From: Candidatus Eiseniibacteriota bacterium
GTDB lineage: Bacteria; Desulfobacterota; Binatia; UBA9968
Direction: 5' to 3'
Length of the DNA stretch: 55,428 bases
Assembly (NCBI GenBank): GCA_035559295.1
Contig: DATMBL010000011.1
Location: 1-55,428, forward strand
Within the stretch, counting starts at the first letter, position 1. Each line of letters begins with the position of its first letter. A model generated the notes under the pieces. It was not told the DNA's origin, made no database searches, and worked only from the letters and a program-made list of their open reading frames with translations. The position numbers were made by a program, and so were the translations under genes. This document shows positions 19,901-55,428 of the stretch, piece by piece.

Positions 19901-20587
19901 CAGCGCAGGGAAGTGCTCAAGGGCGAAAACCTGAAAGAGCAGGTGCTGGATATGGCGCAGAATCTCGTCGATGACATCGTCGCGGGCGCCACCAGCAAGG
20001 AGCTTCATCCCTCGGATTGGGATCTCGCCGGCCTGCGCGACGCGTTCTACCGCCAGTTCAACCTGCGGCTCGACCTGAAGCCCGAGGAGCAAGACGGGCT
20101 CTCGGTAGAGCGAATTTTGGAGATCGCCAGGGAAAGGGTAGTGGCCGCGTATGAGGACAAGGAGAAACGGTTTGGCGAGCCGATGATGCGCCAGCTGGAG
20201 AAGATCATCATGCTCCAGACGATCGATACCCTGTGGAAGGACCATCTCCTCAACATGGATCACCTGAAGGAGGGTATCGGGCTGCGCGGTTACGGCCAGA
20301 AAAACCCGCTCCAGGAGTACCAAAAAGAAGGGTTTGAGCTGTTCGAAGAGATGATCCATCGGATCCAAGAAGACGTCGTTCAGAAGCTGTTTACGGTGGA
20401 AATCGCACGCGAGAGCGCCGTGGAGCGCATGGAAGTGAAGCAGCAGCCTCAGCGCATGGTCCTGAGCCACGGCGGCGCGGTGGAAAACCGCCCGACCGCG
20501 CCCAAGCGCCAGGGCGAGAAGGTCGGGCGCAACGATCCTTGCCCGTGCGGCAGCGGCAAGAAATACAAGCGCTGCTGCGGCAAATAA
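16997..20587 (+). CDS. secA: Preprotein translocase ATPase SecA (1196 aa, with a large variable-region insertion)
   Basis: It has Walker A '[13 protein letters not shown]', DEAD-like '[20 protein letters not shown]' and '[10 protein letters not shown]'. It also has '[31 protein letters not shown]' and the C-terminal zinc finger '[14 protein letters not shown]'. Confidence 0.97.
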
Positions 20588-24625: not shown

Positions 24626-24743
24626 GGTTGCGTTTGTCCTTTCCGAGTTGGTCAAGGATGCTCCTGCGCCTGCCTCCCGGACGACACGTGTCCTTTGAAG
24701 CGTCGCGTCGCACGAACGCATCGCGCGTCGCGCTGCATCCCGA

Positions 24744-24758
24744 GCAATGGGGATGCCA
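24744..24758 (-). promoter_or_regulatory. Sigma-54 (-24/-12) promoter candidate for the response-regulator / dehydrogenase operon
   Basis: The minus strand reads TGGCAT-CCCCA-TTGC, with exact GG-N10-GC spacing. Confidence 0.5.
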
Positions 24759-24860
24759 ACGTCCAATCGCGTAAAATACAGCCAAAAAGCGGGTAAAAGT
24801 CCCTTGTACGAAAATTTATCAGTCAGGCAGCTTTGCCTCGTTACTTTTAGTCCGCCCCGC

Positions 24861-24875
24861 CGGCATGAAACTTGC
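24861..24875 (+). promoter_or_regulatory. Sigma-54 promoter candidate for the kinase / regulator operon
   Basis: The plus strand reads CGGCAT-GAAAC-TTGC, about 160 nt upstream of the ATG at 25037. The first T of TGG is replaced by C. Confidence 0.35.
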
Positions 24876-25036
24876 CCGATGCCGTGGAGAAGAGCGTGGC
24901 AAGCGGTGTTTTTTCTTGACATTGTCAGGACGTTGGCAAACAATTGTTAGCTCATCAGCCGTACTCGGATCGGTTACATCTTCAGGCGTGAGCGCCGGTG
25001 ACGAGCCAGCTCAAACGGTGATCTGCGCATACGTAA

Positions 25037-26167
25037 ATGGACAAGAACTCCGAACAGGCACAAGCGGGTCCCGACTCCGTGCGGACCGGTGAAGCCGGAG
25101 CGAGCGGGGCGCCTCAGGCTCTGCCGCGCAATCCTTATCGGCTTGACGAGGAGGCGGAGGCGCTCTTGCCGTGTGTTCTCTACCAGGCCGATCGCTCGCT
25201 CAAGCTTTCTTACATTTCCGACAATATCCGAGAACTGATCGGCGTCGAAAGCCGGGTTGCCGTTGACAACGGCTTTTTTTGGGACCGAAGCGTTTTCCCC
25301 GAAGATTTGGAGTTGTTCGCCGCCAAAGTCGAGGAACTTCAGGTCTCGGGAGCCGGCGCATTCATCCATCGAATGCGGAGCGCTGCCGGGTTGCCGGTGT
25401 GGGTCGCGCACCGATTCAGGAGCCTGAGAACGGATCGAAGCGACGTGGTGTTGGGAAGTCTGGTTTCGTTGGATCACGATCCGAAAGTCCACGGGATCGA
25501 GTCCAGCACGATCTCGCGTTTTGTGCACAAGATCGGCAATCAGTTCCAGTTGATTGCGCTGAGCGTCGGTTCGATCGCCAAAACTCGCGAGAACTCGAAG
25601 GACATGCGGGTATTTCAGGAAGCCGTTGACGGCGCGATCGAGCTCGTGCGCACATTGTCAGAGTACAACCAGATACCCGCGTGCTTGCCCGATGCCAATT
25701 TGGGTGAAATCGTCAAAGCCTCCGTTGCTTCGCGGCGTCGATCTTTTGAAAAGCAAGGGATCGCTCTGGAAGAAACGATCGAAGCGTCGATCGACGATGT
25801 ATCGCTTGCAGCCGATCCGTTCTTGCTGGAGGCCGCAATCGGCCATGTGCTGCAAAACGCGCTCGAGGCGAGCCGTCGCGGCGGCGCGGTGGCGGTTGTT
25901 GCGTCTCTTTTGCCCGGCGCTACGGGTGGCATGGTCGCGAAGCTCTGCGTCGAAGATACCGGAGCCGGGATTGCGCCCGATGACTTAATGCGAGTCACCA
26001 GGCCTTTTTTTACGTCAAAGAAAAATCACGAGGGGCTCGGTTTGAGCTTGGCATGTCGCTTTGTCGAGCTGCACGGCGGCGCGCTTCGCATACGCAGTGC
26101 CGTTCAAGCCGGCACGACCGTCGAAATCCTGCTTCCGGTCAAGCCCGCCAAAAGAGACGCACTCTAA
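25037..26167 (+). CDS. Soluble PAS-domain sensor histidine kinase
   Basis: 376-aa ORF with no TM segment. It has a PAS-like N-terminal half, an H-box 'FVHKIGNQFQLI', an N-box 'VLQNALEAS' and G-boxes 'EDTGAGI' and 'GLGLSLACRFVELHGG'. Confidence 0.8.
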   Translation: MDKNSEQAQAGPDSVRTGEAGASGAPQALPRNPYRLDEEAEALLPCVLYQADRSLKLSYISDNIRELIGVESRVAVDNGFFWDRSVFPEDLELFAAKVEELQVSGAGAFIHRMRSAAGLPVWVAHRFRSLRTDRSDVVLGSLVSLDHDPKVHGIESSTISRFVHKIGNQFQLIALSVGSIAKTRENSKDMRVFQEAVDGAIELVRTLSEYNQIPACLPDANLGEIVKASVASRRRSFEKQGIALEETIEASIDDVSLAADPFLLEAAIGHVLQNALEASRRGGAVAVVASLLPGATGGMVAKLCVEDTGAGIAPDDLMRVTRPFFTSKKNHEGLGLSLACRFVELHGGALRIRSAVQAGTTVEILLPVKPAKRDAL

Positions 26168-26193: not shown

Positions 26194-27579
26194 ATGTATA
26201 GCGTTCTTATAGTGGAAGATCACGATCGCCTCAGGGAACAACTCGGCCAATTTTACCAGCAGGAAGGGTATCGGGTGACGACCGCCGTCTCCGGCGAGGA
26301 AGCGATCGACAAGCTAACTCAGGAAACGTTTTCGATTGTCGTATCGGATATTAAAATGCCGGGCATCGACGGCTTTGAGCTCGCTCGACACATCCGGGAG
26401 AAATACCCGGAAACCGACATTATCCTGATTACGGCTTTCGGACACATCAAGCAGGCCGTGGAGGCGATGAAGCTCGGCGCCAGCGATTACATCACCAAAC
26501 CGTTTCAACCGGAGGCGATCCGGCTGGTAAGCCAAAAACTGATCGAGAAGAGACGGTTACTGGATGAAGTACGAGAGCTGAGGCAGCGTGTCACCGATGG
26601 TTACAATCTCGAAAACATCGTGAGCAAGAGCCCGGCGATGCTCAAGGTGTTCGATCTGATTCGCTCGGTTTCGGAGACCGACTCGAGCGTGCTCATTACC
26701 GGAGAGACCGGCACCGGCAAAGAGTTGGTCGCCCGCGCCATACACAACTTGAGCCGCCGAAAGAGCAAACCGTTCGTCGCTCTCAACTGCGGCGCGTTCC
26801 CCGAGACGCTCCTGGAAAGCGAGCTGTTCGGTTATGAACGAGGAGCGTTTACGGGGGCGGTCCAGAGCCGCGCCGGCAAAATCGAGATTGCCGAAGGCGG
26901 AACCTTGTTCCTGGACGAAATCGAAACCATGGCCGGTTCGATGCAGGTAAAGCTGCTGCGCGTTCTCCAGGAGCGAGAAGTCGAGCGCCTGGGTGGAAAC
27001 CGGAGGGTTAAAGTCGACATGCGCGTGATTGCCGCGACCAACGTCGATCTGAACCTCTGCCTCGCGCGCGGTACGCTCCGAGAGGATTTTTACTACCGTA
27101 TCAATGTCATTCCTTTGAAACTGCCGCCGCTTCGCGAAAGACTGGAAGACCTGCCGCTTCTCATCCATCACATCCTCAGTCGGCATCCGGTAGCCAAAGA
27201 GAAAAAAGTCAATCAGGTCTCATCGCAGGTGCTGGATCGCATGCTTGCATATCACTGGCCGGGCAATATTCGCGAACTCGAAAACATCATCGAACGGGCG
27301 GTGGTGAAGTGCCAGGGCGATACCATTGAAGACGTTGACCTGCCGCTCCCGCCACGCCGGGTTCTCGACACGCACTATTCGACGCACAACGGCACCGCGG
27401 AACTGTCATTGAAGCAGTGGCTGCTCAACAGTGAAAAAGAGTATCTCCGTGGTTTGCTGATCAAACATCGCGGCAGTATCTCCTCGACCGCGAAACAGGC
27501 GGGCGTGGATAACAAGACGCTCTACCGAAAGATGAAACGGCACGGCCTGCACAAAGAATCCTTCAAAGATTTTTCCTGA
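26194..27579 (+). CDS. Sigma-54-dependent response regulator (NtrC family)
   Basis: REC 'VLIVEDHD...VVSDIKMPGIDG', 'GETGTGKE', 'GAFTGA', and an HTH 'ISSTAKQAGVDNKTLYRKM'. Confidence 0.92.
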   Translation: MYSVLIVEDHDRLREQLGQFYQQEGYRVTTAVSGEEAIDKLTQETFSIVVSDIKMPGIDGFELARHIREKYPETDIILITAFGHIKQAVEAMKLGASDYITKPFQPEAIRLVSQKLIEKRRLLDEVRELRQRVTDGYNLENIVSKSPAMLKVFDLIRSVSETDSSVLITGETGTGKELVARAIHNLSRRKSKPFVALNCGAFPETLLESELFGYERGAFTGAVQSRAGKIEIAEGGTLFLDEIETMAGSMQVKLLRVLQEREVERLGGNRRVKVDMRVIAATNVDLNLCLARGTLREDFYYRINVIPLKLPPLRERLEDLPLLIHHILSRHPVAKEKKVNQVSSQVLDRMLAYHWPGNIRELENIIERAVVKCQGDTIEDVDLPLPPRRVLDTHYSTHNGTAELSLKQWLLNSEKEYLRGLLIKHRGSISSTAKQAGVDNKTLYRKMKRHGLHKESFKDFS

Positions 27580-30867: not shown

Positions 30868-32181
30868 TTATAGCTCTTTGGCAACGAGCTGCGCAGGTTC
30901 TGGTACGGGTAACGGGCGCCCGAACATTCGTGATATTTCGCTCCCGATCCTCGGATGGCCAAAATAGTAGCCCTGTGCCTCATCGCACTCCAACCGGGAA
31001 AGCATTTCCTTGGCCGCCGCGGTTTCCACTCCCTCGGCCACGACGTTCAGACCGAGGTTGTGCGCTAGATCGATAATCGATCGCACGATGAGTGTGTTTT
31101 CTTTCACCGATCCGAGGCTTTGGATAAAGCTCTTGTCGATTTTGATCGTGGTCACCGGGAGCCGACTCAAATATGCGAGAGAAGAGTATCCGGTGCCGAA
31201 ATCGTCAATGGCGAGGCGAACGCCGAGGCGCCGAATTTCTTGCAGAGTGCAGAGGGTGCGCTCGGGGTCATCCATAATTGCACTTTCGGTTATTTCGAGC
31301 TCGAGCTCGCGCGCCGCGATTCCGGTATCGCGCAGGAGCCCGGCAATCTGGCCCGGTAGTTCGGGAGCGGGCAAGTTCAGCATCGAGAGATTCACCGCAA
31401 CCGTAAGTTCGATGCCCGCGCGGCGCCATGCACCGCATTGGAGAAGTGATCGGTGCAGAACCCAAAGTGTCAGCGGTGTGATAAGACCGGTCTGTTCCGC
31501 GACCGGGATGAACTCGTCGGGTTCAATGAGGCCGAACTGAGGATGATTCCACCGCACCAGGGATTCGACTCCGGAGAGGAGTCCGGTTCTCAGATTCACT
31601 TTGGGTTGGAACACCAGGAAGAGTTGGTCTTCAACGATCGACTGCCGGAGATCGCTCATGCGCAAGGCCCTGTACGCCGACTCGAGCGCCGGTTGCGAGT
31701 AGACGACGAGCCTATCGCCGCCGCGCTCGGCGGCGTTGAGAGCTTGGGAGGCGTGCTCGACCAATGCGTCAGCCGTTCTGCTCTGGGCGGGGAAAAGCGC
31801 GATGCCGATGCGGGCCCGTAACCTGACGCGGCGCTCGTCGAGGAGCAGCGGCTGATCGAACGCATTCAGGATTTTCTTCGCGACGACCACGGCATCGTCG
31901 CTCCCGCGGACGGATGGTAGGAGCACCGCCAATCGGCCGCCCTCGAGTTGAAACGTTGTGTCGGATTCTCGCAGGACGGCGCGAATGTGCAGGGACGCTT
32001 GTTGGACCATCTGGGTTCGGCCGGTCCCGTCGCGGGTGGAACCCGCGTAGGCGTCGATGCCAATGAGGAGAAGCGCCACCTCGCGTCTGACGCGTCGGGC
32101 AGCCGCCAAGACACTACGCAACTGGAGGTGGAGGGGAGATTGAGAGAGAAAATTGGAAAACTGAGCCATTACGAGATACAA
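30868..32181 (-). CDS. Degenerate-GGDEF / EAL-domain c-di-GMP phosphodiesterase
   Basis: The EAL residues are present ('ESLVRW', 'VNLS', 'EITE', 'DDFGTGYSSL', 'KIDKSF', 'EGVET', 'QGY'). The GGDEF site is degenerate ('EGGRLAVLL') but keeps an RxxD-like 'RESD'. Confidence 0.9.
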   Translation of the reverse strand: MYLVMAQFSNFLSQSPLHLQLRSVLAAARRVRREVALLLIGIDAYAGSTRDGTGRTQMVQQASLHIRAVLRESDTTFQLEGGRLAVLLPSVRGSDDAVVVAKKILNAFDQPLLLDERRVRLRARIGIALFPAQSRTADALVEHASQALNAAERGGDRLVVYSQPALESAYRALRMSDLRQSIVEDQLFLVFQPKVNLRTGLLSGVESLVRWNHPQFGLIEPDEFIPVAEQTGLITPLTLWVLHRSLLQCGAWRRAGIELTVAVNLSMLNLPAPELPGQIAGLLRDTGIAARELELEITESAIMDDPERTLCTLQEIRRLGVRLAIDDFGTGYSSLAYLSRLPVTTIKIDKSFIQSLGSVKENTLIVRSIIDLAHNLGLNVVAEGVETAAAKEMLSRLECDEAQGYYFGHPRIGSEISRMFGRPLPVPEPAQLVAKEL

Positions 32182-32464
32182 AACCGGTTCGGCACAAGAG
32201 TCGTGAATTTTGATTCTGCAAACGGAGCAGGGGCAGCAATGAGTATGCCGTTTCGTTTTGGGACGCCATTGATTGTATTTTCAACCGTTTAGGATAAATC
32301 GCCGACACACCGGGAAACGGCACCGGCATGCTGTCTCTTTACGAAAGCGACAAAATGGGCCGCCCAGAGTGACAGGATTGTGCAGGCGGCACCGTATAAC
32401 CACAGTCGTCGGGGAGTGTCGACAGCTGCCGAAATCTGGGGATTCGCAGGAGAAGCGAAGAGGG

Positions 32465-33640
32465 TTATCCCACGGCACGGGTCGGTTCGCTGGCCTTATC
32501 AACACCGCTCGAGTGCAGGGAGGGATCGAGCCTAGTTCGATAGGGCAGTTTGATCAGGCCAAGGAGTTGCCGGCGTTTCGACTCCCGTTGCTCGTAAAGA
32601 CGCGGAAGAATAATTCTGAAAGTTGAACCCTTCCCAACCTCGCTCTCGACCGTGATCGTCCCGCGGATCTGTTCGACGTGCTTTTTGACGATGCTCAGTC
32701 CAAGCCCGATGCCGCCACGCGCATTTTCTGTGGAGGTCTTGTGCACCTGGACGAAGGGATCAAAAATCGTTTTTAAAAACTTTTCAGGAATACCGATGCC
32801 GGTATCGGTGACCTCGAGGATGACATCTTTAGTGCGCAAAGCCTGGAGCCGCATCGTGATCGATCCGCGGTCGGTGTACTTCAACGCGTTCTGGAGTAAA
32901 TTGCTGAGGATTTCCTTGAGCCGGTCTGTGTCGGTTCGGATCATGATCGGCTCGCTTGGAATCTCCCAGTGAAGGGCGAGGCCTTTTTGCCTGCATAAAA
33001 AATCAAACGTTTCCCGCAGGTCGTTGACGACGGTGTTGACACACGAGTCTTGAATGCGAAGGGGCTGCCGGTTCGCTTCCAGTCGCGAAAAGATCAGAAT
33101 CTGATCGATCATTTCCCTTAAGTGGTTGGACTGCTTTCCTACGACGGTCAATATCTCCTGATGTTTTGCGTCAATCTGGCCGTAGAGGCCGTCCGTCAAA
33201 CATTCGACATACCCGATGATAACCGCCAGCGGTGTTCGCAACTCATGGGAGACCTGGTTGAGAAACTCGGATTTCATGCGGGCGAGCTTTTCCGCCTGTT
33301 CCTTCTGGCGTTTGAGCACTTCCACGAACGACTCGTCCTTCGGCTTGGGATCCGATACCGCCGCGCCGATCACAAGACCCATCATGACGACAGCGAAGAA
33401 GGCGAGACCGCCGTAAACGAGAACGTCTCTGTTACTCGTAAGCACCTTCGCCCAATAGGTGATTTTCTCCTCGAGGCCCTGCGACCGACGATTGCCCTCG
33501 AACCGGGGGGACAGTTGCCTTTTGACGATCTCCGTCGAAGCCGGGCTGCGCTTAAAGGATTTGTGAACGAGGAGAGTGGAAGCGGTGGCGGAAAGCGCGA
33601 CGAAGAACAGGCCGCCGATGAGGACGCGACGCAAGATCAT
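32465..33640 (-). CDS. Membrane sensor histidine kinase
   Basis: It has two TM segments, HisKA 'SHELRTPLAVIIGY' and HATPase 'VTDTGIGIP' and 'GIGLGLSIVKKHVE'. Confidence 0.88.
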   Translation of the reverse strand: MILRRVLIGGLFFVALSATASTLLVHKSFKRSPASTEIVKRQLSPRFEGNRRSQGLEEKITYWAKVLTSNRDVLVYGGLAFFAVVMMGLVIGAAVSDPKPKDESFVEVLKRQKEQAEKLARMKSEFLNQVSHELRTPLAVIIGYVECLTDGLYGQIDAKHQEILTVVGKQSNHLREMIDQILIFSRLEANRQPLRIQDSCVNTVVNDLRETFDFLCRQKGLALHWEIPSEPIMIRTDTDRLKEILSNLLQNALKYTDRGSITMRLQALRTKDVILEVTDTGIGIPEKFLKTIFDPFVQVHKTSTENARGGIGLGLSIVKKHVEQIRGTITVESEVGKGSTFRIILPRLYEQRESKRRQLLGLIKLPYRTRLDPSLHSSGVDKASEPTRAVG

Positions 33641-33642
33641 GG

Positions 33643-34602
33643 TCAGGAATGCGCTGGCAGCGGGGCTGGGCCGTTTTTGGCTGTGTCCGGCGCATGACCT
33701 TCGATTCGATCCTTGCCTTTGTGCTTGGCGGAATAAAGGGCGCGGTCCGCGTCATCCAACATGTCTTTCCAGTTTGTGTACGGCTTTACGGACGTTGAAC
33801 TCAGCCCGATGCTGACCGTGAGAGCGAACATTTTGCCGGGACTGCCGAAGGTGCTCGAACGGATTTCCTGATGGATTTTGGTTGCGGCCTGAAGCGCATT
33901 CTCGTAATCGGTTTCGGGCAGGACCAACACAAACTCTTCGCCGCCAAACCGCGCGGGGAAGTCGCTGCGCCGCGTCTTTTCGCGCAGCGTCGCGGCAATT
34001 TTCACCAGCGCGGCGTCGCCGCCGTGGTGTCCGTAGGTATCGTTAATGTTTTTAAAATTATCGATATCCAAAATCAGGACCGAAATCGGATGATGGTAAC
34101 GTTGCGCGCGCTCAAATTCTTCAGAGATTCTTTTCTCGAATCCGCGCCGATTGAAAAGCCCGGTGAGAGAATCGACCTGCGTCTGGTGCTCGAGATGCTG
34201 CTGGTACTGAACAACTCGAGAGCCGACACGCACCCGAGCAAGCAGTTCTGAAAACGAGAATGGCTTTGTGATGTAATCGTCGGCGCCGAGGTCGAGACCT
34301 CGGACGCGATCGCCTTCCTGAATGCGAGCGGTAATGAGGATAAGATAAATATGCTTTAAAGCGGCGTCGCTACGAATTCTTCGAATCAGCTCAAAGCCAT
34401 CCAGCTTCGGCATCATGATATCTGAGAGCACAATCTGAGCATGGGCGTGCGCCAGCTTTTCGAGCGCGTCGACACCGTTTTCGGCCGTGATTACCTGGTA
34501 GCCTTCTCGCCTGAGGACCACGGCCAGCAATTCACGCTGATCGACGTGGTCCTCAATGATCAAGACCGTGAGCGGTAACGTTTCCTGGGAGTTTTTAGCC
34601 AT
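33643..34602 (-). CDS. Response regulator with diguanylate cyclase output (REC-GGDEF)
   Basis: REC 'VLIIEDHVDQ...VLSDIMMPKLDG', the active site 'GGEEF', and the I-site 'RRSD' five residues upstream. The ATG is at 34602. There is a 2-nt gap to the downstream kinase. Confidence 0.92.
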   Translation of the reverse strand: MAKNSQETLPLTVLIIEDHVDQRELLAVVLRREGYQVITAENGVDALEKLAHAHAQIVLSDIMMPKLDGFELIRRIRSDAALKHIYLILITARIQEGDRVRGLDLGADDYITKPFSFSELLARVRVGSRVVQYQQHLEHQTQVDSLTGLFNRRGFEKRISEEFERAQRYHHPISVLILDIDNFKNINDTYGHHGGDAALVKIAATLREKTRRSDFPARFGGEEFVLVLPETDYENALQAATKIHQEIRSSTFGSPGKMFALTVSIGLSSTSVKPYTNWKDMLDDADRALYSAKHKGKDRIEGHAPDTAKNGPAPLPAHS

Positions 34603-34671
34603 GGATGGTTCGCGAGTTGTTTTTACGATCTTTTGAGCGCGGCCTTGGCCGGTTGCGGGGGGTGAGAAACA

Positions 34672-34686
34672 GCAAAACACATACCA
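34672..34686 (-). promoter_or_regulatory. Sigma-54-like promoter candidate for the REC-GGDEF/HK operon
   Basis: The minus strand reads TGGTAT-GTGTT-TTGC with correct GG/GC spacing, about 70 nt upstream of the ATG at 34602. The -24 box is weaker than consensus. Confidence 0.35.
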
Positions 34687-47131: not shown

Positions 47132-47917
47132 CTAGGCCTTGTTCAACCGGCTCATCGCGGCTTTAAGACTTGCACGCATTCTTTCAAGCGACCTGGCAAG
47201 CTCCCCCACCTCATCGTTTGACTGCACCGGCACGACCGTATCCAGCCGACCCCGGCTGATCTCATCGGCAGTGGCTTTAAGGTCTAGTATAGGTCGAATG
47301 GTTTTGCCAGCGATCGCCATCGAAAGTGCCACACCGATCACGAGGCAAAGAGCGACCGCTGCGACGATAGGAAGGATCGTGGCCCGAACTTCGCTGTGAA
47401 CGGACTCGGCCCACAAACCAACGTGAACGGCGCCCAACTGACCGTCCAGAAGCGGAACCCGGGTTTCATACGCAGATTGACCGCGCAGCGAGGTCGTCCG
47501 CGAGCTGGCGACCCGCTGGTTGCGCGTCAATGAAACATCTTTGAGCTCGGCCGGAAAGGGCTGCAGGCTGGACGCGATCACGTCACCTTTCGGACCGATT
47601 ATGAACGCGTAGGCTACGCCGTCGAGTCGGCCATACTTTGCGATGAGCGCATCGAGTTCCAAGCTGTTCTTTCGCGCCACGTGACCAGCAGCGGCGTCGC
47701 TCAGGTTGGTTGCGATGGCAGAAGCTCTCAGCTCGACCTGCCGCCGAAGCGCGCTGTCCGTTAGATAATACACGACCCCTATAACGAAAGATCCCAAAAC
47801 GAGCAAGAGCGCGCTAAAGCTGGCACTGATTTTCCAACGCAGGCCCGCCGCCTTCCACGGAACGGCGGCTAGGCCGCCGACCTTGACACCATCCATTGAC
47901 ATCGACTCCTGAGACAT
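47132..47917 (-). CDS. TM-sensor-TM-HAMP protein without output domain (paralog 2)
   Basis: It has the same architecture and alignable sequence as 29590-30330 ('AIATNLSDAAAG', 'DEVGELARSLERMRASLKAAM'). It ends just after the HAMP. Confidence 0.75.
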   Translation of the reverse strand: MSQESMSMDGVKVGGLAAVPWKAAGLRWKISASFSALLLVLGSFVIGVVYYLTDSALRRQVELRASAIATNLSDAAAGHVARKNSLELDALIAKYGRLDGVAYAFIIGPKGDVIASSLQPFPAELKDVSLTRNQRVASSRTTSLRGQSAYETRVPLLDGQLGAVHVGLWAESVHSEVRATILPIVAAVALCLVIGVALSMAIAGKTIRPILDLKATADEISRGRLDTVVPVQSNDEVGELARSLERMRASLKAAMSRLNKA

Positions 47918-47941: not shown

Positions 47942-48736
47942 TCAAAACTTCTTGAACCCTGAAATCTCGTGCGCCACAGCTTCTTGAAATTTCGCTCTCG
48001 ATTTCGCGTCCGGGATCTCTCTACAGATGAGAGCGATGAGTTCGTCGAACTTAGCTTCGGGAAAACTCGTTTGCGATTCGCCCAGAGCTTCGATTTGGTC
48101 GCGGACAACCACCGGCGCCATCGGACCGATGATTTCCGTGAGGAGCACGCTCATGCGGTTAAACAAGGCAGGCGTCACGAGCTCGGACGCCGGCTTGACT
48201 GGCGGTGCGACCACTTCCACAAGCCCGGCTTTGTGCAAATTGAATATGACTTTGGCGGTATAGGCGTAAGGCACTCGCAGGATTTCCGCGATCTCTTGGA
48301 CCGTGCGGACACCGTCGATTTTGGTGAGAACGCGCCAGCCGACATGCGGGACCGTTACCGGACCACTTTGCTCGTCCGCCAGCTCGGCGAGCCGAAAAAC
48401 CGTTTTGCCGGAGGGGATGACTTCGAGAATCGTTTCCCACTCGCGACTCATGGCTTTCACTTCTTCGAGGATCTGCGTCGAATGCTTTCTGATCGTTGCC
48501 GTCGGCGCGGAGCCGTTGGGAAGGAGAGTGAAGCTGCCCTCGCCCCAGGTGACGGGGTAGAGAAGCGCCTTTTCGCCGTCTCCTATGGGACACGTGGCGT
48601 GGATGATCTCTCCGCCGCTAAGGTAGATCTCGACGGTTTCCTTTCCCCGCGACAGTTTGAGAACCCCTGATTTCTTGCCGCTCGTCGCGAGCAGCAAAAG
48701 ATCATTCAAACTGATTTGCGAAAGATTTCCTTGCAT
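47942..48736 (-). CDS. DUF4388 (PatA-N/PATAN-like) domain protein with a winged-helix-like middle region
   Basis: The N-terminus 'GNLSQISLNDLLLLATSGKKSGVLKLSRGKETVEIYLSGGEIIHA' matches the DUF4388 pattern. The middle region 'RTVQEIAEILRVPYAYTAKVIFNLHKAGLVEVV' is wHTH-like. Confidence 0.7.
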   Translation of the reverse strand: MQGNLSQISLNDLLLLATSGKKSGVLKLSRGKETVEIYLSGGEIIHATCPIGDGEKALLYPVTWGEGSFTLLPNGSAPTATIRKHSTQILEEVKAMSREWETILEVIPSGKTVFRLAELADEQSGPVTVPHVGWRVLTKIDGVRTVQEIAEILRVPYAYTAKVIFNLHKAGLVEVVAPPVKPASELVTPALFNRMSVLLTEIIGPMAPVVVRDQIEALGESQTSFPEAKFDELIALICREIPDAKSRAKFQEAVAHEISGFKKF

Positions 48737-48759: not shown

Positions 48760-49083
48760 CTAGCGTTCTTCCGAACTCCTCCGCGGCGATACGGTTTGCA
48801 CCTTTCTCACGTGTTCGGTCAGCTCATCATGTCCGTTCAGAGTGACTTTCAGGGTTTTTATGACCGCGAGGTTCTTGCTGATATTGACCATCTGCTCGAG
48901 CGTCGATTTGATCTGACTCTGGAGCAGATCCAGTTCCTCGGTCGAAATTCCCTGAAGTTGGCTTTGCAGCTCATCGTACAGACGAGTAATGCTGTCGATT
49001 TGCCCCAAGGATTGGGTCTTGTGCGTTATCTCCTCGTACAGCCGCGAGATGTCTTCCGTGAGATGTTGCAGCTCGTTTTTCAT
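48760..49083 (-). CDS. Small coiled-coil hypothetical protein
   Basis: This is a 107-aa heptad-rich ORF. Its ATG lies 1 nt after the upstream stop. The track ORF's N-terminal extension overlaps the upstream gene. Confidence 0.5.
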   Translation of the reverse strand: MKNELQHLTEDISRLYEEITHKTQSLGQIDSITRLYDELQSQLQGISTEELDLLQSQIKSTLEQMVNISKNLAVIKTLKVTLNGHDELTEHVRKVQTVSPRRSSEER

Positions 49084-49084
49084 A

Positions 49085-50338
49085 TCAGTTGCCACCCTTT
49101 TCAACGGATTTGAGGTGCTTGGTTGCGTACGGATTGTTCGCCGTTCTGCGGAAGCCCGATGGTTCAGCGTTGGCCGGGTGATCGCTTTTCGTCGCCGGCT
49201 CGACGCTGCTCGGTTGGAGACTCGACTGAACCGGCTGGGGGGAAGATGCCGGAGTGTCGTCGGATGATCGCCAGTAGAAATAGGCCGCGGCAATGACGAG
49301 GACGAGAAGCGCGCAAACCGCAACAATGCCGGCGCGGGTTCTCTTGGCGGAGTGATCCGAGTAGAGGTCGTATTCGCCGTAATCTTTAATGAGCTTTTTG
49401 AGCCGCTGGTCGAGATCGCCGTCTTTGGGCGTCGCTACGGTGGGTTTCAGCGGCGCGACGTTTTCAACCAGGGGGAACTCGGGTTCCGCGGGCCCGGGCG
49501 CGTCTGGCAGCTCGTCGGTCGGCTGGGACGGTTCGGTGGCCGCCTTGGAAACAGGAATGATGAACTCGCCGTAATCCTTGATGAGGTCGTTGAGCAACCT
49601 CTGATCGAACTCGAATCGTGACTCGTCCGCACTTTCCGGCAGAGGCCTCGCTGCGTCATGCTTCTGTTGCGCATCGGAGACCGTTACAACCGGGCTCGCG
49701 GTTTGCGCTTCTTCGTTCCCCTGAGGGCGCCGTCCGGAATCTCGATCAGTTACGGTAGGTGCGGGGTCGAGACGGGTTGTACGGGCTGTCTCCGGAGAGC
49801 TCGTAGGTCGAGATTCGAACGCCAGGGCCGTGCTCTCAACGGATCCTGCCCGAGAAGCGGGAGGTTGCCGTTCGAGTGGAGAATCCGCGCCTGACTCGGA
49901 AGCAGGTAAATTTTGGGAGCGGTTGTGCTTCGGCAGGGACTGCTGGGTGGCTTCGCGCGTGTCGTTGGCTGACTTGGGCGGCCTCGGAAACATAATGAGC
50001 TTACGCAAGTTAGTGAGCGCTTGTAACTGCGTGGGCGGAGGCGCGGCCAAGAGATCATCAGCGCTCGCGACCACGTTATCGGCCTTCGCGCGCTCGGCGC
50101 AGAGCACTTGATCTCTGATTCGAGAAACATTCTCCAGCGCGTGTTGCAGCTCTCGCAGCCGGGTTGCAAGAGTTACAAGCTTCTTTTCAGTTTCCTCAAC
50201 GTCGGCGATCGTGACACGCTCGAGTTTGTCCCGAAGCCGCTCGACCGCCCCCACGACATCGCCGGCCGCGTTCAGCGTAGCGTTTGGAGGGACCGCCACG
50301 GATTGAGCCCTCTCGTCTTCCTTGTGCGCCGATAACAT
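49085..50338 (-). CDS. Pro/Ser-rich single-pass membrane protein with N-terminal coiled coil and a duplicated DQRL..LIKDYGE(F/Y) motif
   Basis: I chose the ATG at 50338 because the TTG at 50413 lies inside the -12 box of the promoter candidate. A TM 'AGIVAVCALLVLVIAAAYFYW' lies near the C-terminus. Confidence 0.55.
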   Translation of the reverse strand: MLSAHKEDERAQSVAVPPNATLNAAGDVVGAVERLRDKLERVTIADVEETEKKLVTLATRLRELQHALENVSRIRDQVLCAERAKADNVVASADDLLAAPPPTQLQALTNLRKLIMFPRPPKSANDTREATQQSLPKHNRSQNLPASESGADSPLERQPPASRAGSVESTALAFESRPTSSPETARTTRLDPAPTVTDRDSGRRPQGNEEAQTASPVVTVSDAQQKHDAARPLPESADESRFEFDQRLLNDLIKDYGEFIIPVSKAATEPSQPTDELPDAPGPAEPEFPLVENVAPLKPTVATPKDGDLDQRLKKLIKDYGEYDLYSDHSAKRTRAGIVAVCALLVLVIAAAYFYWRSSDDTPASSPQPVQSSLQPSSVEPATKSDHPANAEPSGFRRTANNPYATKHLKSVEKGGN

Positions 50339-50409
50339 TTGAGGTTTGTTTGTGCGCGAGCCTCGATTCCGAATTCCCGGTTGAACGAAATTACAAAGGC
50401 AGCGGAAAA

Positions 50410-50424
50410 GCAAAAGCGCTGCCA
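50410..50424 (-). promoter_or_regulatory. Sigma-54 promoter candidate for the five-gene module
   Basis: The minus strand reads TGGCAG-CGCTT-TTGC, near-consensus with exact spacing. It lies in the 185-nt gap after the protease gene. A 7-bp palindrome GAAAACT-n4-AGTTTTC is at 50438-50455. Confidence 0.55.
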
Positions 50425-50598
50425 GTGTGCGGGTTTCGAAAACTGTCGAGTTTTCAGCAACATCAGGACAGGGTTCTCCCTTAATTGCTAGATAATTCCC
50501 CCAGTTCTGTTCATCTTGAACAAAATTGTACGTGGATGGCTCGAACCGCTCGTTGAAACCAATAACGGCTGATGCGGGGCGAGAATGGAACGCGACAC

Positions 50599-51357
50599 TC
50601 AGCGCGGAGCAAGTGTGATGATCTGGTTCTTCGAGTCGATCGATAGATGAAAGCGACTCAAGAAATCCAGACCCAAAAGTCCATCGACGCGCGCCGTCGG
50701 CATGAGGTCATGAACGGTCACCGTAAGATTATGGACCTCCGCTTCTCCGACCTTAAGCGAGCCGACGCGCGCCATCGGCATCGACATGGGACCGCTGACC
50801 GTCATTGCAACGATCCGCGGTCCGTCGGTTCTCAAGCCCAGATCCTTAGCGATGCGCCGAGAGATCATCGTCGTTGTCGCGCCCGTATCCAGAGCGAGAA
50901 GCGCTTTGATCCGGCGATTTAGCGTCACGGGCACGATGACCGACGTGCCGTTCATTTTAACCGGAATCCGAATGGCGTTCTCGGACTCGGCCGCCACCGA
51001 AGCGGAATGTGCCATGGCAAGCTCGGTGACGGTCGGCGGCGGCACGGGCCTGAAGGCCTTTTCCACATCCGCGATCGTGTCGGCGTCCGCTTTCTTGACC
51101 CAACCGATCACGCCGCGACGTGATTCTATCAAGTACCAGCGCAATCCTTGCGGTCCTATACTTTCCGCGATCGGCGTTGCCGACTCGCCGCGCTTGAGAA
51201 AGCCCGCGGGAGGCGACGATTCATCGGGCCCGAGATGGATAACGATGCTGCCCGCGTCAGCTCCGGTTTGTATGACGAGCGGTTGGCTTTCCGCGTCACT
51301 CGCCAATAGGCACGATGCAAGGCAGGCAACGTACAAAGGGCGGATAAGCTTCGGCAC
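50599..51357 (-). CDS. Retropepsin-like (clan AA) aspartic protease with an N-terminal SH3b-like domain
   Basis: It has a signal and possible lipobox 'CLASC' and an SH3-like 'LRWYLIESRRGVIGWVKK'. It also has the catalytic 'LLALDTGATTTMIS' and 'GLLGLDFLSRF'. Confidence 0.8.
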   Translation of the reverse strand: MPKLIRPLYVACLASCLLASDAESQPLVIQTGADAGSIVIHLGPDESSPPAGFLKRGESATPIAESIGPQGLRWYLIESRRGVIGWVKKADADTIADVEKAFRPVPPPTVTELAMAHSASVAAESENAIRIPVKMNGTSVIVPVTLNRRIKALLALDTGATTTMISRRIAKDLGLRTDGPRIVAMTVSGPMSMPMARVGSLKVGEAEVHNLTVTVHDLMPTARVDGLLGLDFLSRFHLSIDSKNQIITLAPR

Positions 51358-51375
51358 GGCGTCAGTCCTGCGCTC

Positions 51376-52656
51376 CTAAGGCGCGATCGCAAACTTCTCG
51401 ATCTTGCGGTAGAGAGTGCGTGTTGATATGCCGAGAGCTTCGGCGGCTTTGGCTTTGTTCCCGTTCGTTTGGCGTAGCGCCTCCTCGATCAGGCTCTTTT
51501 CACCTTCTTCGATATTGCGAATCACTTTCGGGCCGATTTCCTCCCGGTGACCGGTGGCGTACTGCTGAAGATGCATCGGTAAATCGGCGACCGCGATGTA
51601 TTCACCGTCGGAAACCATGACTGCGCTTTCGACGACGCTCTTCAGCTCGCGAATGTTTCCCGGCCACGGATAGTTTAGCAGAAGGGTCTTCGCGGAACTG
51701 CTGAGCTTCTTCAAGGGCCTGCCGTACTGCTGGCACGTTTGATACATGAAATTTGCCAGGAGCAAGATGATGTCTTCTTTGCGCTCGCGAAGTGGCGGAA
51801 GAATAATCCGCGCGCTGTTCAGCCGAAAGTAGAGATCTTTTCTAAAGCTGTTGTTTTGAATCGCCTGATCCAGCTCCTTGTTGGTTGCGGCAATGATTCG
51901 CACGTCGCTGGTCCTGGGCGTCGAGTCGCCGACCTTGTAGTACTGGCGCGTCTCGAGAAAGCGCAAAAGCTTCAATTGGATCGCCGGCGCGAGGTCGCCG
52001 ATCTCGTCGAGAAAAAGGGTTCCTCCTTCCGCGGCTTCGATCAGTCCCTTTTTGTTCCGGTCGGCGCCGGTGAATGCTCCTCGGACGTAGCCAAAAAGCT
52101 CGCTCTCAACGAGCGTTTCAGGAATCGCGGTCATATTGCAGGCGACAAACGGCTTGTCCGCGCGCGGGCCGTGCGTGTGAATATAATGCGCCATAACCTC
52201 TTTGCCGGTGCCGGTTTCGCCGGTGATCAAGACCGTGATGTCGTGCATCGCGTAGCGGTTGGCGAGGTTCAACACTCCGTGAAACTGCGGCGTCTCGCCG
52301 ATGATCATCGGCGCCTGCACCGAATCCCCCGAGCGGCTTTCCTCTTGCGCAGACGGAACGTAGCCCAAAAGCCCGTTCAGCTGATGAATTCTCTCCGGGT
52401 GGTAGCAGACGAACGCCAGCTCGACCGGGTTTTCGCCCGCGCGTTCGATCAGGCTCTCCCACACCCGACCGCGGCAGATCGAAACATCGGCGAATACGAA
52501 CTTGATCTGGTCCGTCGGGAAAGCGGAAAAGACGCGCTCGACTTCGTCGAGGCTGCGGGTCAGGTGTACTGCGAGTCCGCGCGCCTCGAGCAGTTTGGTC
52601 AACGCCGTCGGCGATGACTTGAGCGCATGGACGACGAGAGCGAGTGGCTGCGGCAT
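51376..52656 (-). CDS. Sigma-54-dependent transcriptional activator with an atypical N-terminal receiver-like domain
   Basis: 'GETGTGKE', 'GAFTGA', and an HTH 'NKAKAAEALGISTRTLYRKI'. The N-domain lacks the usual acidic DD pocket at its start. Confidence 0.9.
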   Translation of the reverse strand: MPQPLALVVHALKSSPTALTKLLEARGLAVHLTRSLDEVERVFSAFPTDQIKFVFADVSICRGRVWESLIERAGENPVELAFVCYHPERIHQLNGLLGYVPSAQEESRSGDSVQAPMIIGETPQFHGVLNLANRYAMHDITVLITGETGTGKEVMAHYIHTHGPRADKPFVACNMTAIPETLVESELFGYVRGAFTGADRNKKGLIEAAEGGTLFLDEIGDLAPAIQLKLLRFLETRQYYKVGDSTPRTSDVRIIAATNKELDQAIQNNSFRKDLYFRLNSARIILPPLRERKEDIILLLANFMYQTCQQYGRPLKKLSSSAKTLLLNYPWPGNIRELKSVVESAVMVSDGEYIAVADLPMHLQQYATGHREEIGPKVIRNIEEGEKSLIEEALRQTNGNKAKAAEALGISTRTLYRKIEKFAIAP

Positions 52657-52662
52657 CGCGAA

Positions 52663-54126
52663 TCAGTCTCGCGGCGAAGACGGTAAAATCACCATGTTCT
52701 CGAGGGCATCCGCCAATAGCTGGCGCGTAATCCGCGGGGGTGTGCCGGCATAGTGACACGCCGCGATCACGTGTTCGGCGATAAACCTGGGATGGAAGCC
52801 GGCAAAGGGAAGTTTATATTTGACGTAAAAAGAATTCAGCAGATAGGCCATGATTTCCTCGGAGAACTCCAGACCGTACGAGGCGCAGATGCGCTGGAAA
52901 ATTTCGCGGAACTCGCGGACGGTGGGCGGTTCGATCTTGAGCTTGTAGTGAACGCGGCGGAGTTGCGCGGGATCCATCAACTCTTCAGGGGGAAAATTGG
53001 TGGCAAAAATCACCAGCTGATCGAATAACAATTCGATTTTCTTCCCGGTGTGCAGCGTCAGATAGTCGATCTTGCGTTCGAGAGGGAAAATCCACCGGTT
53101 GAGCAGATCGTTCGGTCGAACCCTTTGGCGCCCGAAGTCATCGATAATAAAAACACCGCCTATGGCTTTCATGTGCAGGGGCGCTTCGTAATACTTCGAA
53201 TAGGGATCGAAGTCGAGATCGAGCATTTCCAACGTGAGCTCACCGCCGGTAATGATCGCCGGCCGTTTGCATCGTACCCAGCGCGGGTCATATTCCGCCG
53301 GAGGAAGGAACATCGGATGCGGGGCGGCGCTCGCGCGATTGACGCCGCCGGGCGCCGGCATGTGAACCGCGGGATCGAAGAACTTGATGATTTGCCCGTC
53401 ATCGACAATCGCATGAGGAACGTAAACCGGCTGCTCGAAGGCCTCGGCAAGGCCCTGAGCGATCGACGTCTTTCCGTTTCCCGCCGCTCCGTAGATCAAA
53501 ATCGCTCTACCGGAGTTGGCCGCGGGCCCGAGCTTTCGGATGATGTCATCGGAAAGGACCAGGTGCGACAGCGCCTTGCGGAGCTTGTCCATGCCGATGA
53601 TTTCGTTCGTGATCGTCTGCTTCTGCACCTGCATCTGGTAAGACGCGAGCGAAACCGGCGCCGCGCCAATGTATTCGCAGCGCCGTAGCGCCTCGGCAGC
53701 GCGCGCCTTACCGGCGCTCGTCAGAGCGTAACGCATGATCGTGTGATTGTTTTCCAGCGGGCCTTTGATCTCGACCAGAGCGTCCTTCTTGGCGAACGTC
53801 AGCAGTTCTTCGACAACCGCGCGCGTGAGTTTGATTTGGTCCGAGAGCTCCGGAATCGTTTGCAGGCCGGAAACGTAGATGATGCGCAACAGGAGATTGG
53901 TCAGAAAGTTGAGCTCCAGGCCGGTGTCGGCGACGGTCTTCGGAATTGCCGGCGGCTCTTGGAGGATCGCGTCGAGCTTTTCCCGCGTCACGTAACCGAG
54001 AGCAACTAAATTGTCGCCGAGCCGCCCGCCGGCGATCTTCTGTTGTTGGAGAACCCGGTCGAGTTGCTCTCTCGTGATGACTTCTTTGGCTAACAAAAGT
54101 TCGCCTAGCGGCATAGTCGGGTCCAA
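52663..54126 (-). CDS. MshEN (T2SSE_N)-domain AAA-type ATPase
   Basis: The N-terminus has tandem 24-residue MshEN-like motifs separated by 5 residues. It has Walker A 'YGAAGNGKTS' and Walker B 'VFIIDDFGRQ'. There is a 6-nt gap to the downstream activator gene. Confidence 0.8.
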   Translation of the reverse strand: MDPTMPLGELLLAKEVITREQLDRVLQQQKIAGGRLGDNLVALGYVTREKLDAILQEPPAIPKTVADTGLELNFLTNLLLRIIYVSGLQTIPELSDQIKLTRAVVEELLTFAKKDALVEIKGPLENNHTIMRYALTSAGKARAAEALRRCEYIGAAPVSLASYQMQVQKQTITNEIIGMDKLRKALSHLVLSDDIIRKLGPAANSGRAILIYGAAGNGKTSIAQGLAEAFEQPVYVPHAIVDDGQIIKFFDPAVHMPAPGGVNRASAAPHPMFLPPAEYDPRWVRCKRPAIITGGELTLEMLDLDFDPYSKYYEAPLHMKAIGGVFIIDDFGRQRVRPNDLLNRWIFPLERKIDYLTLHTGKKIELLFDQLVIFATNFPPEELMDPAQLRRVHYKLKIEPPTVREFREIFQRICASYGLEFSEEIMAYLLNSFYVKYKLPFAGFHPRFIAEHVIAACHYAGTPPRITRQLLADALENMVILPSSPRD

Positions 54127-54245
54127 ACTTTTGATTGTTTTTGGGAGTTCGTGCGTTTATATTGACCAAAAAACTGTTTCATTATAGGTCGCACCGGAGT
54201 TGTGTCAAGGAAAGTTAAACCGCAACCGAGAGGTCACTAACAATT

Positions 54246-55428
54246 ATGCCTAGTTATCGAGCTTATTTGACAGTGTTAATTAACGCTCTACTGGTTTGGG
54301 CTTCCGGTTGTAGTACCCATGAGGACAGCGCCCGGCCAGGTGGTTCCGGGCTGATTGTGACGCCGCCGCATTACTACAGTACGACCAGGGCCCGATCCCT
54401 GGGTTCTCGCTACAAGCAGAATCTCGAGCGGATCGTTGAGAGTATCGTACGCAGTCCTGTCACGTCGGGCCTGCAGTTCGCCAACAACATCGCCGCGAAT
54501 GGAGGGATCGGGTTTTTCACCCATTCCGCAACGCGCGTTCCCGACGAGCGATTTTTGGAAGTGGTGCTCGGGGTGCCCGACACGTTCGATGCGAGTGAGC
54601 AGCATCGTTTGAAAACCCAGCGGGTGTTTGCCAAGTACGGTCCTGAATTGCTAACGATCCTGGCAAGCGATGCCGAGATCGCGAAAGATCCGGAAGTCGC
54701 GGGGTACGGCGTCAACCTGTCATGGCGCAGCATCGCGCGGGAGAGCGCAGGGCCGCGAGTGATACTGGAGCGCGCGGTCATTTATCTATCCAAAGATACC
54801 GTCCAACATTTTCTGCGGCGTGAGATTACCGAGGCGCAGCTACTCGAACGCTCGGCGACATTCGTCGCGCGCGGCGACGGCATCCTGCAACTCGTGTCCG
54901 GGCGTGCCGAAGCCCCCGCGGGCGATCGTCGTGCCGCGATCGCCGAGGAAACGATTTCGGAAAACAGCCTGCCCCAAGCCGCAGCGGTCGGGGAAAACCG
55001 GCCGTCGCCGGAGCAAGCGAGGTTATCGAAGGGAAGCCCGCCGGTTGCGGTCGAGACCACGACGGAAACGCATCGAGCGGTGGCGGAAAAGCCCCGCGTT
55101 CCCGAACCCGCTCCAGTGAAAAAGCCGCCGCTTGGCACCGCACGCGCGGGCGGCGCCAGCGCCGAAGTGACGCCAGACGTAGAACGCTCGCCCGGCCGCG
55201 AACGCACAGAGTCTGCGAGCGATCTTCGGGCGGAGCAGTCGGATCGACGGAAGGCAAGCCCCGATCACGGTCAGGTAACCCAAAAATCACTCGAGCCACG
55301 GCCCAGGCCGGGAGAGGCTCGCGAGTCGGAATCTTCCAAGCCTAACCACGAGGCGGTAATTTCTCGCCCCGCAGGCCGGGTTTCAGCGGCCGAGAAGACC
55401 GCAGTCCCCGACACGCCCGCGCCGGTGG
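54246..55428 (+). CDS. Lipoprotein, 3'-truncated by the window end (absent from the ORF track because it has no stop)
   Basis: I translated it by hand from the ATG at 54246 and found no stop through 55428. It has a signal and lipobox 'LLVWASGC'. A structured roughly 210-aa part is followed by a Pro/Ala/Glu/Arg-rich low-complexity tail. Confidence 0.6.
   Translation, partial: MPSYRAYLTVLINALLVWASGCSTHEDSARPGGSGLIVTPPHYYSTTRARSLGSRYKQNLERIVESIVRSPVTSGLQFANNIAANGGIGFFTHSATRVPDERFLEVVLGVPDTFDASEQHRLKTQRVFAKYGPELLTILASDAEIAKDPEVAGYGVNLSWRSIARESAGPRVILERAVIYLSKDTVQHFLRREITEAQLLERSATFVARGDGILQLVSGRAEAPAGDRRAAIAEETISENSLPQAAAVGENRPSPEQARLSKGSPPVAVETTTETHRAVAEKPRVPEPAPVKKPPLGTARAGGASAEVTPDVERSPGRERTESASDLRAEQSDRRKASPDHGQVTQKSLEPRPRPGEARESESSKPNHEAVISRPAGRVSAAEKTAVPDTPAPV

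Follow-up and report, generated by a model that had tools for sequence, protein, structure and literature searches.

How does a sigma-54-dependent activator receive its signal when its regulatory domain lacks most of the residues of a phosphorylated receiver and no histidine kinase gene adjoins its own? The question is raised by three consecutive minus-strand open reading frames (ORFs; 52663-54126, 51376-52656 and 50599-51357) in a 55,428-nucleotide (nt) stretch of DNA from an uncultured soil bacterium (contig DATMBL010000011.1; the whole stretch is referred to here as the window). The three ORFs are predicted to encode an AAA+ ATPase, a sigma-54 enhancer-binding protein and an exported aspartic protease, and the gaps of 6 and 18 nt between them are those given in a preliminary description of the locus, which treated all three as one coupled operon. 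They are best explained as the regulatory arm, driven by a sigma-70 promoter, of a conserved cluster that extends beyond them, with the ATPase and the activator as its core. We further propose, tentatively and at somewhat less than even likelihood, that the ATPase senses cyclic di-GMP (c-di-GMP) and gates the activator with which it is co-expressed.

The first gene of the three is predicted to encode an ATPase made of three parts:

52663..54114, minus strand: MshEN_N-winged helix-AAA+ ATPase; 483 amino acids (aa) from the ATG at 54114, 487 aa when the TTG at 54126 is taken as the start
53953..54111, minus strand: predicted MshEN_N module, residues 2-54; two 24-residue motifs with 5 residues between them, from NF053729 and an alignment to MshE (5HTL)
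53677..53934, minus strand: winged-helix-like domain, residues ~61-146, from the secondary structure of the AlphaFold model
52690..53667, minus strand: AAA+ module, residues ~150-475, from invariant columns in 56 sequences, motif coordinates and Foldseek

The ATG at 54114 is probably the true start, since an identical database protein (P0001) has 483 aa. In an alignment-based AlphaFold model (AF2; mean predicted local distance difference test score, pLDDT, 92.2; predicted template modelling score, pTM, 0.87) four short helices are followed by a winged helix and then by the AAA+ module. Motif coordinates and the model together uphold the Walker A motif (GAAGNGKT, residues 209-216, 53467-53490), the Walker B motif (IIDDFG, residues 323-328, 53131-53148) and the winged-helix-like linker that had been named in the preliminary description. 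Across 56 homologues, G209-T216, D325/D326, the sensor-1 residue N373 (in FATN) and the arginine pair R386/R387 (in LRR) are invariant or nearly so. The beta-rich insertion between Walker A and Walker B is also conserved, with the motifs FDPxxH, DxRW, GGELT and YEAPL; within it, D247, H251, D276, R278, E292 and K316 are invariant in the same 56 sequences.

Membership of the AAA+ class is supported by Foldseek, which matched the model to many AAA+ structures with a probability of 1.00, the best matches being the 8P49 hexamer, the archaeal LonB AAA domain, RuvB, Lon and ClpB (template modelling scores, TM-scores, of 0.44-0.60). The first of these (Q8U0N8 of Pyrococcus furiosus) is an uncharacterised hexameric ring without a Pfam assignment (bioRxiv 10.1101/2023.06.09.544317). 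Although the E-values are low (8e-12 to 8P49 and 2e-9 to archaeal LonB), the TM-scores reach only 0.44-0.60 at 15% identity, and the window protein has no Lon-type protease domain. Sequence searches against solved structures returned only P-loop-level matches for the ATPase core, and no Pfam or NCBIfam family model was reached (AAA_16, 21.7 vs 32.6; TIP49, 19 vs 23.8; IteA, 31.9 vs 510). The family is nevertheless large: 3,917 cluster representatives match at E<=0.001, and 731 still do so at E<=1e-30. Its members come from Acidobacteriota, Alphaproteobacteria, Desulfobacterota, Nitrospirota and other groups. Its N-terminal module is interchangeable: across homologues P0121-P0270 it may be MshEN_N, FHA (P0186, P0189), HDOD (P0227), a weakly matched PAS (P0243) or nothing, and this swapping with FHA, HDOD and PAS marks the family as signal-regulated ATPases. 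Some orthologues are named 'PadR family' by JGI, in keeping with a winged helix. Sequence-specific DNA binding by this domain is unlikely, because the helix that would recognise DNA is acidic/hydrophobic in character and differs between family members.

The N-terminal module is the part of the protein that suggests a signal. Residues 6-57 score 59.7 bits to NCBIfam NF053729, an MshE-related c-di-GMP-binding domain with a cut-off of 38, and the N-terminus aligns to Vibrio cholerae MshE (PDB 5HTL, E=4e-5). The two 24-residue motifs correspond to residues 2-25 and 31-54, are joined by the spacer KIAGG and form four helices in the AlphaFold model. Of the MshEN/T2SSE_N-like module described earlier, the MshEN_N half therefore stands on both NF053729 and 5HTL, but the T2SSE_N part does not: Pfam T2SSE_N has no match in the ATPase, and the MshEN_C (T2SSE_N1) half is absent, with the winged helix in its place, so that the protein holds only the 53-residue MshEN_N half of a full MshEN. 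Among 130 members of its clade, the equivalents of MshE G11, L25, L29, Q32, R38, L39 (as a hydrophobic residue), G40, G47, L54 and L58 are 88-100% conserved, and the leucine triads and glycine turns (equivalents of L10, L25, L29, L39, L54 and L58, and of G11 and G40) are likewise conserved at 88-100% or kept hydrophobic. In MshE itself, hydrophobic substitutions lower c-di-GMP affinity more than 10-fold and charged ones at most 5-fold (PMC5013675). Binding of c-di-GMP by the predicted MshEN_N module is thus plausible, if possibly weaker than in MshE.

In MshE, PilB and PilF, an N-terminal MshEN_N of two 24-residue motifs binds c-di-GMP and regulates the attached hexameric ATPase (PMC5013675). 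Those motors are T2SSE/PilT-class ATPases, whereas the window protein is an AAA+ ATPase with a winged helix and no MshEN_C (T2SSE_N1). The MshEN_N-AAA+ architecture is not among the MshEN architectures in the published supplement (PMC5013675), and among the top-ranked papers of a literature search on MshEN together with sigma-54 or activators, none mentioned MshEN. The window also holds a c-di-GMP turnover cluster on the minus strand (30868-34680), made up of a REC-GGDEF gene (33643-34680), a HisKA/HATPase_c kinase gene (32465-33640) and a GGDEF-EAL gene (30868-32181); the REC-GGDEF and GGDEF-EAL genes, about 17 kb from the MshEN gene, imply that this organism both makes and degrades c-di-GMP.

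The second gene encodes the activator:

51376..52656, minus strand: sigma-54 enhancer-binding protein, 426 aa; Sigma54_activat (PF00158) 223.6 bits, AAA_lid_14, HTH_8 56.4 bits
52306..52656, minus strand: its N-terminal regulatory domain, residues 1-117; non-canonical, no receiver match

Its GAFTGA loop is intact (residues 193-198, 52063-52080), as are its ATPase and Fis-type DNA-binding parts, and its N-domain is the unusual part. In four orthologues, residues 1-117 match no Pfam family, Response_reg included, even at E<=10; the two other activators of the window give clear Response_reg matches of 111 and 75 bits. When aligned by hhalign to six receiver sequences the N-domain falls in register, with a probability of only 2.7%, and a profile search of the PDB with it returned 2QZJ as its top receiver, weakly (E=0.24). 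As the preliminary description had observed, the usual acidic pocket is missing. Inspection of six orthologues for a phospho-acceptor found a single invariant aspartate, D57, at the expected place, with the acidic pair, the conserved Thr/Ser and the conserved Lys of receivers all absent. The name 'atypical receiver' is a reasonable guess for this domain, and it is probably not switched by phosphorylation, because the acidic pair, Thr/Ser and Lys are missing; gating by protein contact is what we propose instead. The lack of a cognate histidine kinase, also pointed out earlier, holds: none adjoins the three-gene operon, and the window's two kinases, encoded at 25037-26167 and 32465-33640, each sit beside their own regulator. 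The receiver-type sigma-54 activators of the window are encoded at 26194-27579 (plus strand), after the PAS histidine kinase gene 25037-26167, and at 23237-24943 (minus strand).

Three control elements link these genes to each other and to the genes downstream:

54181..54208, minus strand: sigma-70-type promoter TTGACA-16-TATAAT, preceding the ATPase-activator(-protease) operon; 12/12 hexamer matches
50501..50532, minus strand: probable enhancer (upstream activating sequence), a 13-3-13 inverted repeat ACAATTTTGTTCA-aga-TGAACAGAAcTGg; the -24 element follows ~92 bp downstream
50409..50424, minus strand: predicted sigma-54 -24/-12 promoter TGGCAgcgcttTTGCT; motif TGGCAC-N5-TTGCW with a GG-N10-GC core, from pattern match and positional conservation

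The sequence CTTGACA...TATAAT is identical across six loci, that labelled L092 among them (alignment A8), and this common invariant promoter, together with the 6-nt gap, indicates that the ATPase and activator are co-expressed. In the ~65-nt leader between this promoter and the ATPase start (54115-54180), the blocks GTTTTT, ATAA and AAAnACAA are kept in the same six loci; no Rfam match indicative of a regulatory RNA was obtained anywhere in the window, leader included.

The presence of a sigma-54 promoter directly downstream, as proposed in the preliminary description, is supported by its conserved position in related loci, the pattern alone not being above chance (2 matches in the window vs 0.79 expected). 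The -24/-12 element occupies the same position in L001, L002, L004, L085, L086, L100 and L102; the copy in L092 differs by one mismatch. The palindrome, whose core lies at 50508-50522, and the predicted promoter are the best conserved intergenic DNA of the cluster and keep the same place in all eight of these loci, a predicted sigma-54 promoter thus coming with an upstream inverted repeat that is conserved in position. In the cluster-bearing loci that lack the protease (L085, L100 and L102), enhancer and promoter stand immediately 5' of the first operon gene, and in L100 and L102 they come straight after the activator gene. We infer that the palindrome is the binding site of the adjoining activator. 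The second match in the window, to TGGC-N7-TTGCT at 24743-24758 (minus strand), lies inside the 5' part of the listed ORF 23237-24943, whose true start may be further downstream and which may be autoregulated.

Conservation of the ATPase-activator pair extends beyond the close relatives of this bacterium. Within the lineage of the window, whose members carry Binatia or Methylomirabilota labels in public databases and whose ATPases are 75-84% identical, the two genes are always adjacent. At 58% ATPase identity, L092 keeps the whole cluster; at 52%, L087 keeps only a gene for the N-domain of a lipoprotein (described below) and the pair, beside Tad pilus genes; and at 53%, L091 keeps the pair alone between a cation-efflux gene and a major facilitator superfamily (MFS) gene. 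The spacing of the pair is 3-84 nt across these three contexts, the activator N-domain is conserved alongside it, and in a neighbour-joining tree of 96 ATPases all of the activator-adjacent ones, which reach down to 52% identity, group in a single clade. No other protein of the cluster is as well conserved as the ATPase (77-78%, vs 41-44% for the protease). A sigma-54 promoter or enhancer was looked for near the pair in L087 and L091 and not found.

A locus search with a 13-sequence ATPase alignment returned only relatives at <=51% identity. Homologue searches with the activator N-domain gave 2 matches for the L091 sequence and 44, mostly short, for a profile; the three profile matches that were looked up proved to be frameshift fragments, and led to L100, L101 and L102. 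These three are ENA contigs with many split genes (gatB, the activator and PATAN genes), typical of frameshift-prone long-read assemblies, so absences in them, such as that of the L101 ATPase, are provisional and should be confirmed. Convergent Tad/Flp pilus genes (DUF192, two T2SSF, T2SSE and ParA-REC) lie beside the pair in L087 (10897-17455) and beside the activator in L101 (6313-10276); L101 also has a PilZ protein nearby, and no sigma-54 promoter was found within the L087 and L101 stretches examined. Among more distant relatives, a Desulfuromonas metagenome-assembled genome carries two tandem MshEN-AAA+ paralogues (L027:5486-8410), 38% and 41% identical to the ATPase of the window, and a NifH/frxC-family gene comes after them.

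Downstream of the predicted sigma-54 promoter lie five genes, and a further gene diverges from the ATPase:

49085..50338, minus strand: 417-aa membrane protein, heading the sigma-54 operon; start codon chosen by comparing the L092 and L001 loci
48760..49083, minus strand: 107-aa predicted coiled-coil protein; 71-76% identity in orthologous loci, no family match
47942..48736, minus strand: PATAN (PatA_N/DUF4388) plus winged-helix (DUF8082) protein; PF14332 51.7 bits, precomputed PF26309 in orthologues
47132..47917, minus strand: sCache_3_2-HAMP membrane transducer without an output domain; domain match, two membrane helices
45680..47101, minus strand: NMT1/SsuA-type solute-binding protein, predicted to be exported, with a C-terminal LysM; domain matches, hydrophobic N-terminal signal
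54246..55428, plus strand: divergent lipoprotein gene, running off the window end; lipobox WASGC read from the translation

All five products of the sigma-54 operon are, by prediction, membrane- or periplasm-associated. The 417-aa protein matches no Pfam or NCBIfam family; in a hydropathy scan it has a coiled-coil/low-complexity N-terminal part (9.6% Pro), one membrane helix at residues ~337-356 and an outer tail of ~60 aa, and just ahead of the helix the motif (L/K)LIKDYGE(F/Y) occurs twice, ~70 residues apart. The lipoprotein N-domain of ~230 aa matches no family either. By tblastn it adjoins the ATPase in L087 (7023-7703), L092 (5034-5819), L100 and L102, and the activator in L101. Lipoprotein orthologues end in a SPOR domain (PF05036); only some lineages have the Pro-rich linker and SPOR. 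Further away in the window, in a 1,196-aa SecA (16997-20587, plus strand), the 290-position SecA_DEAD model is spread over residues 6-461, so that a large insertion is likely.

The remaining gene of the three-gene array, encoding the protease, is separable from the other two:

50599..51357, minus strand: predicted exported SH3b-like plus retropepsin-like aspartic protease, 252 aa; Asp_protease_2 64.8 bits (cut-off 24.3)

The protease is present in the window, L001, L002, L004, L086 and L092 and absent from L085, L087, L091, L100 and L102. It is an optional cluster member outside the core, and the earlier grouping of it with the coupled pair does not survive its absence from at least five related loci. 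Its identification as an SH3b plus clan AA protease fares better, the aspartic protease being secure (64.8 bits, DTGA) and the SH3_3 match falling at 25.0 bits, below the gathering score of 27, although its W74, G82, G85, W86 pattern is invariant. The DTG(A/S) and LLG motifs are invariant in five orthologues, as in retropepsin-like proteases of clan AA, but the protein fails the trusted cut-off of the clan AA DTGA subfamily TIGR02281 (36.2 vs 57.95 bits). Hydrophobic N-termini in all orthologues suggest that it is exported. PodJ of Caulobacter is a coiled-coil, single-pass membrane protein. The PerP-PodJ system of Caulobacter and APRc of Rickettsia provide examples of envelope retropepsin-like proteases, with DTG and hydrophobic-hydrophobic-Gly motifs, that process envelope or polarity proteins (PMC4140852). 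Unlike these, the window protease scores below the TIGR02281 cut-off, carries an SH3b-like domain, is dispensable in close relatives and has no demonstrated substrate.

Taken together, these features could form the following circuit. The sigma-70 operon would make the ATPase and activator together, and the activator would bind the palindrome and drive the five-gene envelope/signalling operon from the sigma-54 promoter. The activator N-domain, probably not phosphorylatable, would be gated by protein contact, and the co-translated ATPase would be the gate: c-di-GMP bound to the four-helix MshEN_N would alter the nucleotide or oligomeric state of the ring ATPase, and depending on this state the ATPase would hold or remodel the N-domain. 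Feedback onto MshEN_N may come from the PATAN protein, itself a product of the sigma-54 operon. From the binding of the palindrome through to the PATAN feedback, these are steps that we infer. The protease would be an optional periplasmic accessory that may trim the membrane protein at its outer tail, or else some other partner anchored to the cell wall. We doubt the most specific form of this circuit, in which an AAA+ ring reads c-di-GMP and mechanically holds or remodels a degenerate receiver-like domain in place of phosphorylation, with PATAN closing the loop; its chances seem low to us.

Several observations weigh against a c-di-GMP-sensing ATPase that gates the activator. In the 130 clade members, the equivalents of MshE R9, G18 and Q61 are systematically A/P/S, N and P, so the polar contacts made by Arg9 and Gln61 are missing, and the small residue at motif position 10 has become E/N; affinity may be low or lost. 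Adjacency of the pair within the window's lineage proves nothing alone, since serS, rnhB and gatCAB are equally syntenic there. At 80 loci in GTDB genomes (40-51% identity), and for P0122 and P0125, the ATPase has no adjacent activator and no constant neighbour, and the genes around distant family members are mixed (GDPD, GH3, GT2, ABC, nucleotidyl transferase, NifH-like) with no common partner; the absence of an activator beside these MshEN-AAA+ relatives means that the basic job of the family is not activator control. Finally, L101, which is syntenic with L087 at 72% nucleotide identity, keeps the activator, but the 2,057-bp stretch that carries the ATPase in L087 is replaced there by only 745 bp. 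The co-occurrence that the preliminary description had offered for checking is thus real in one clade and three unrelated contexts, and does not extend to the activator-less relatives or to L101. The pairing is therefore a clade-specific acquisition that has been mostly, but not strictly, retained.

Could the two proteins act side by side instead? If the ATPase and activator were co-expressed for the same envelope or surface process, with no signal from one to the other, the client of the ATPase would be another protein, such as the PATAN or membrane/coiled-coil proteins, and the activator N-domain would sense a small ligand or the sCache-HAMP/PATAN branch. Such parallel action is consistent with a wider family that works without activators or a fixed neighbour, with an L101 activator that has no ATPase at its locus, with structural neighbours that are ring unfoldases or translocases (LonB, Lon, ClpB, RuvB) and with the contacts between PATAN and the MshEN region documented for PilB1. 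It accounts less well for a pair kept at 3-84 nt in three contexts, among them L091 with no other cluster genes nearby, and the activator needs some input, for which no other candidate sensor accompanies it in L091 or L087. We regard parallel action as somewhat unlikely. That adjacency is no more than inherited gene order, with no functional link, we consider very improbable: while serS, rnhB and gatCAB also keep their places in the window's lineage, the pair is monophyletic and survives in three neighbourhoods down to 52% identity, and its 6-nt spacing and common invariant promoter point to co-expression.

Another possibility concerns the sensor itself, in that MshEN_N might here be a protein-docking module only, having lost c-di-GMP binding, with regulation exerted by partner proteins. 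The clade-wide replacement of the R9, G18 and Q61 equivalents speaks for such a loss, as do position 10 of motif 1 and position 24 of motif 2, which fall outside even the relaxed published motif (PMC5013675), and degenerate non-binding MshEN domains such as that of XpsE are known. Yet conservation stands at 88-100% for Q32, R38, both glycine turns and all six positions of the leucine cluster, the module exceeds the cut-off of the curated c-di-GMP-motif model by >20 bits, and mutations of charged residues shifted MshE affinity at most five-fold, all of which make loss of binding unlikely in our judgment. We also considered whether an ATPase beside a protease might be an anti-phage defence pair of the IetAS type. 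The ATPase gives partial PADLOC and NCBIfam matches to IetA (32-39 bits, over Walker A and sensor regions only) and the protease matches the candidate family PDC-M08B, but these matches span only generic AAA+ and retropepsin motifs (32 vs 510 bits), the protease is optional and predicted to be exported, and the cluster lies in housekeeping synteny with a dedicated sigma-54 circuit. With only partial IetA matches, and an exported aspartic protease as neighbour rather than the IetS serine protease, we reject an IetAS system and give it almost no weight.

The proposed gating of an activator by its co-expressed ATPase has counterparts among known systems, each of which differs in a defining respect. 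In the pairs PspA-PspF, NifL-NifA and HrpV-HrpS, a sigma-54 activator answers to a dedicated partner protein and not to phosphorylation. To our knowledge, none of PspA, NifL and HrpV is an AAA+ ATPase or carries a c-di-GMP module, and PspF is without an N-domain; the likeness is one of partner control, whereas the partner in the window is an AAA+ ATPase with a predicted c-di-GMP module. FleQ of Pseudomonas aeruginosa, likewise a sigma-54 activator, has a receiver-like N-domain that is not phosphorylated; c-di-GMP and a separately encoded partner ATPase, FleN, tune its activity. FleN is a MinD/ParA-type ATPase. Structures of FleQ are among the PDB matches of the window activator. In the ATPase of the window, no matches to ParA, CbiA or AAA_31 were found, and its fold is AAA+, ring-type with a winged helix, rather than the deviant Walker A type of MinD/ParA, so the analogy to FleN and FleQ that had been drawn earlier holds at the functional level only. 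In FleQ, c-di-GMP is bound by the activator's own AAA+ domain (PMC5013675), placing the sensor on the activator, whereas here the predicted sensor is on the partner and no flagellar genes take part. A PATAN domain binds the N-terminal, MshEN-bearing half of PilB1 in Synechocystis, and PATAN-GspE_N fusions exist (bioRxiv 10.1101/2021.06.11.447907). The likeness lies in a PATAN protein co-occurring with a GspE_N/MshEN-type N-terminus; the PATAN protein of the window differs in having no receiver, in its fusion to a winged helix (DUF8082) and in its place in a sigma-54 operon, and no pilus motor is encoded in the window.

In conclusion, c-di-GMP signalling involves many enzymes and few known receptors, and binding of c-di-GMP by the ATPase described here, if true, would constitute a new class of c-di-GMP effectors. 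The clade-specific pairing of this ATPase with an activator that lacks the phosphorylation residues of receivers would offer a new route, in which the second messenger would reach sigma-54 promoters via a partner ATPase and not via the activator itself. Partner-gated and c-di-GMP-linked sigma-54 control are both known; our analysis suggests that what is new is a predicted c-di-GMP sensor on an AAA+ partner from an undescribed family. As promoter, enhancer and proteins are all defined, the circuit could be rebuilt in vitro even though the organism is uncultured, and the wider ATPase family is worth study in its own right.

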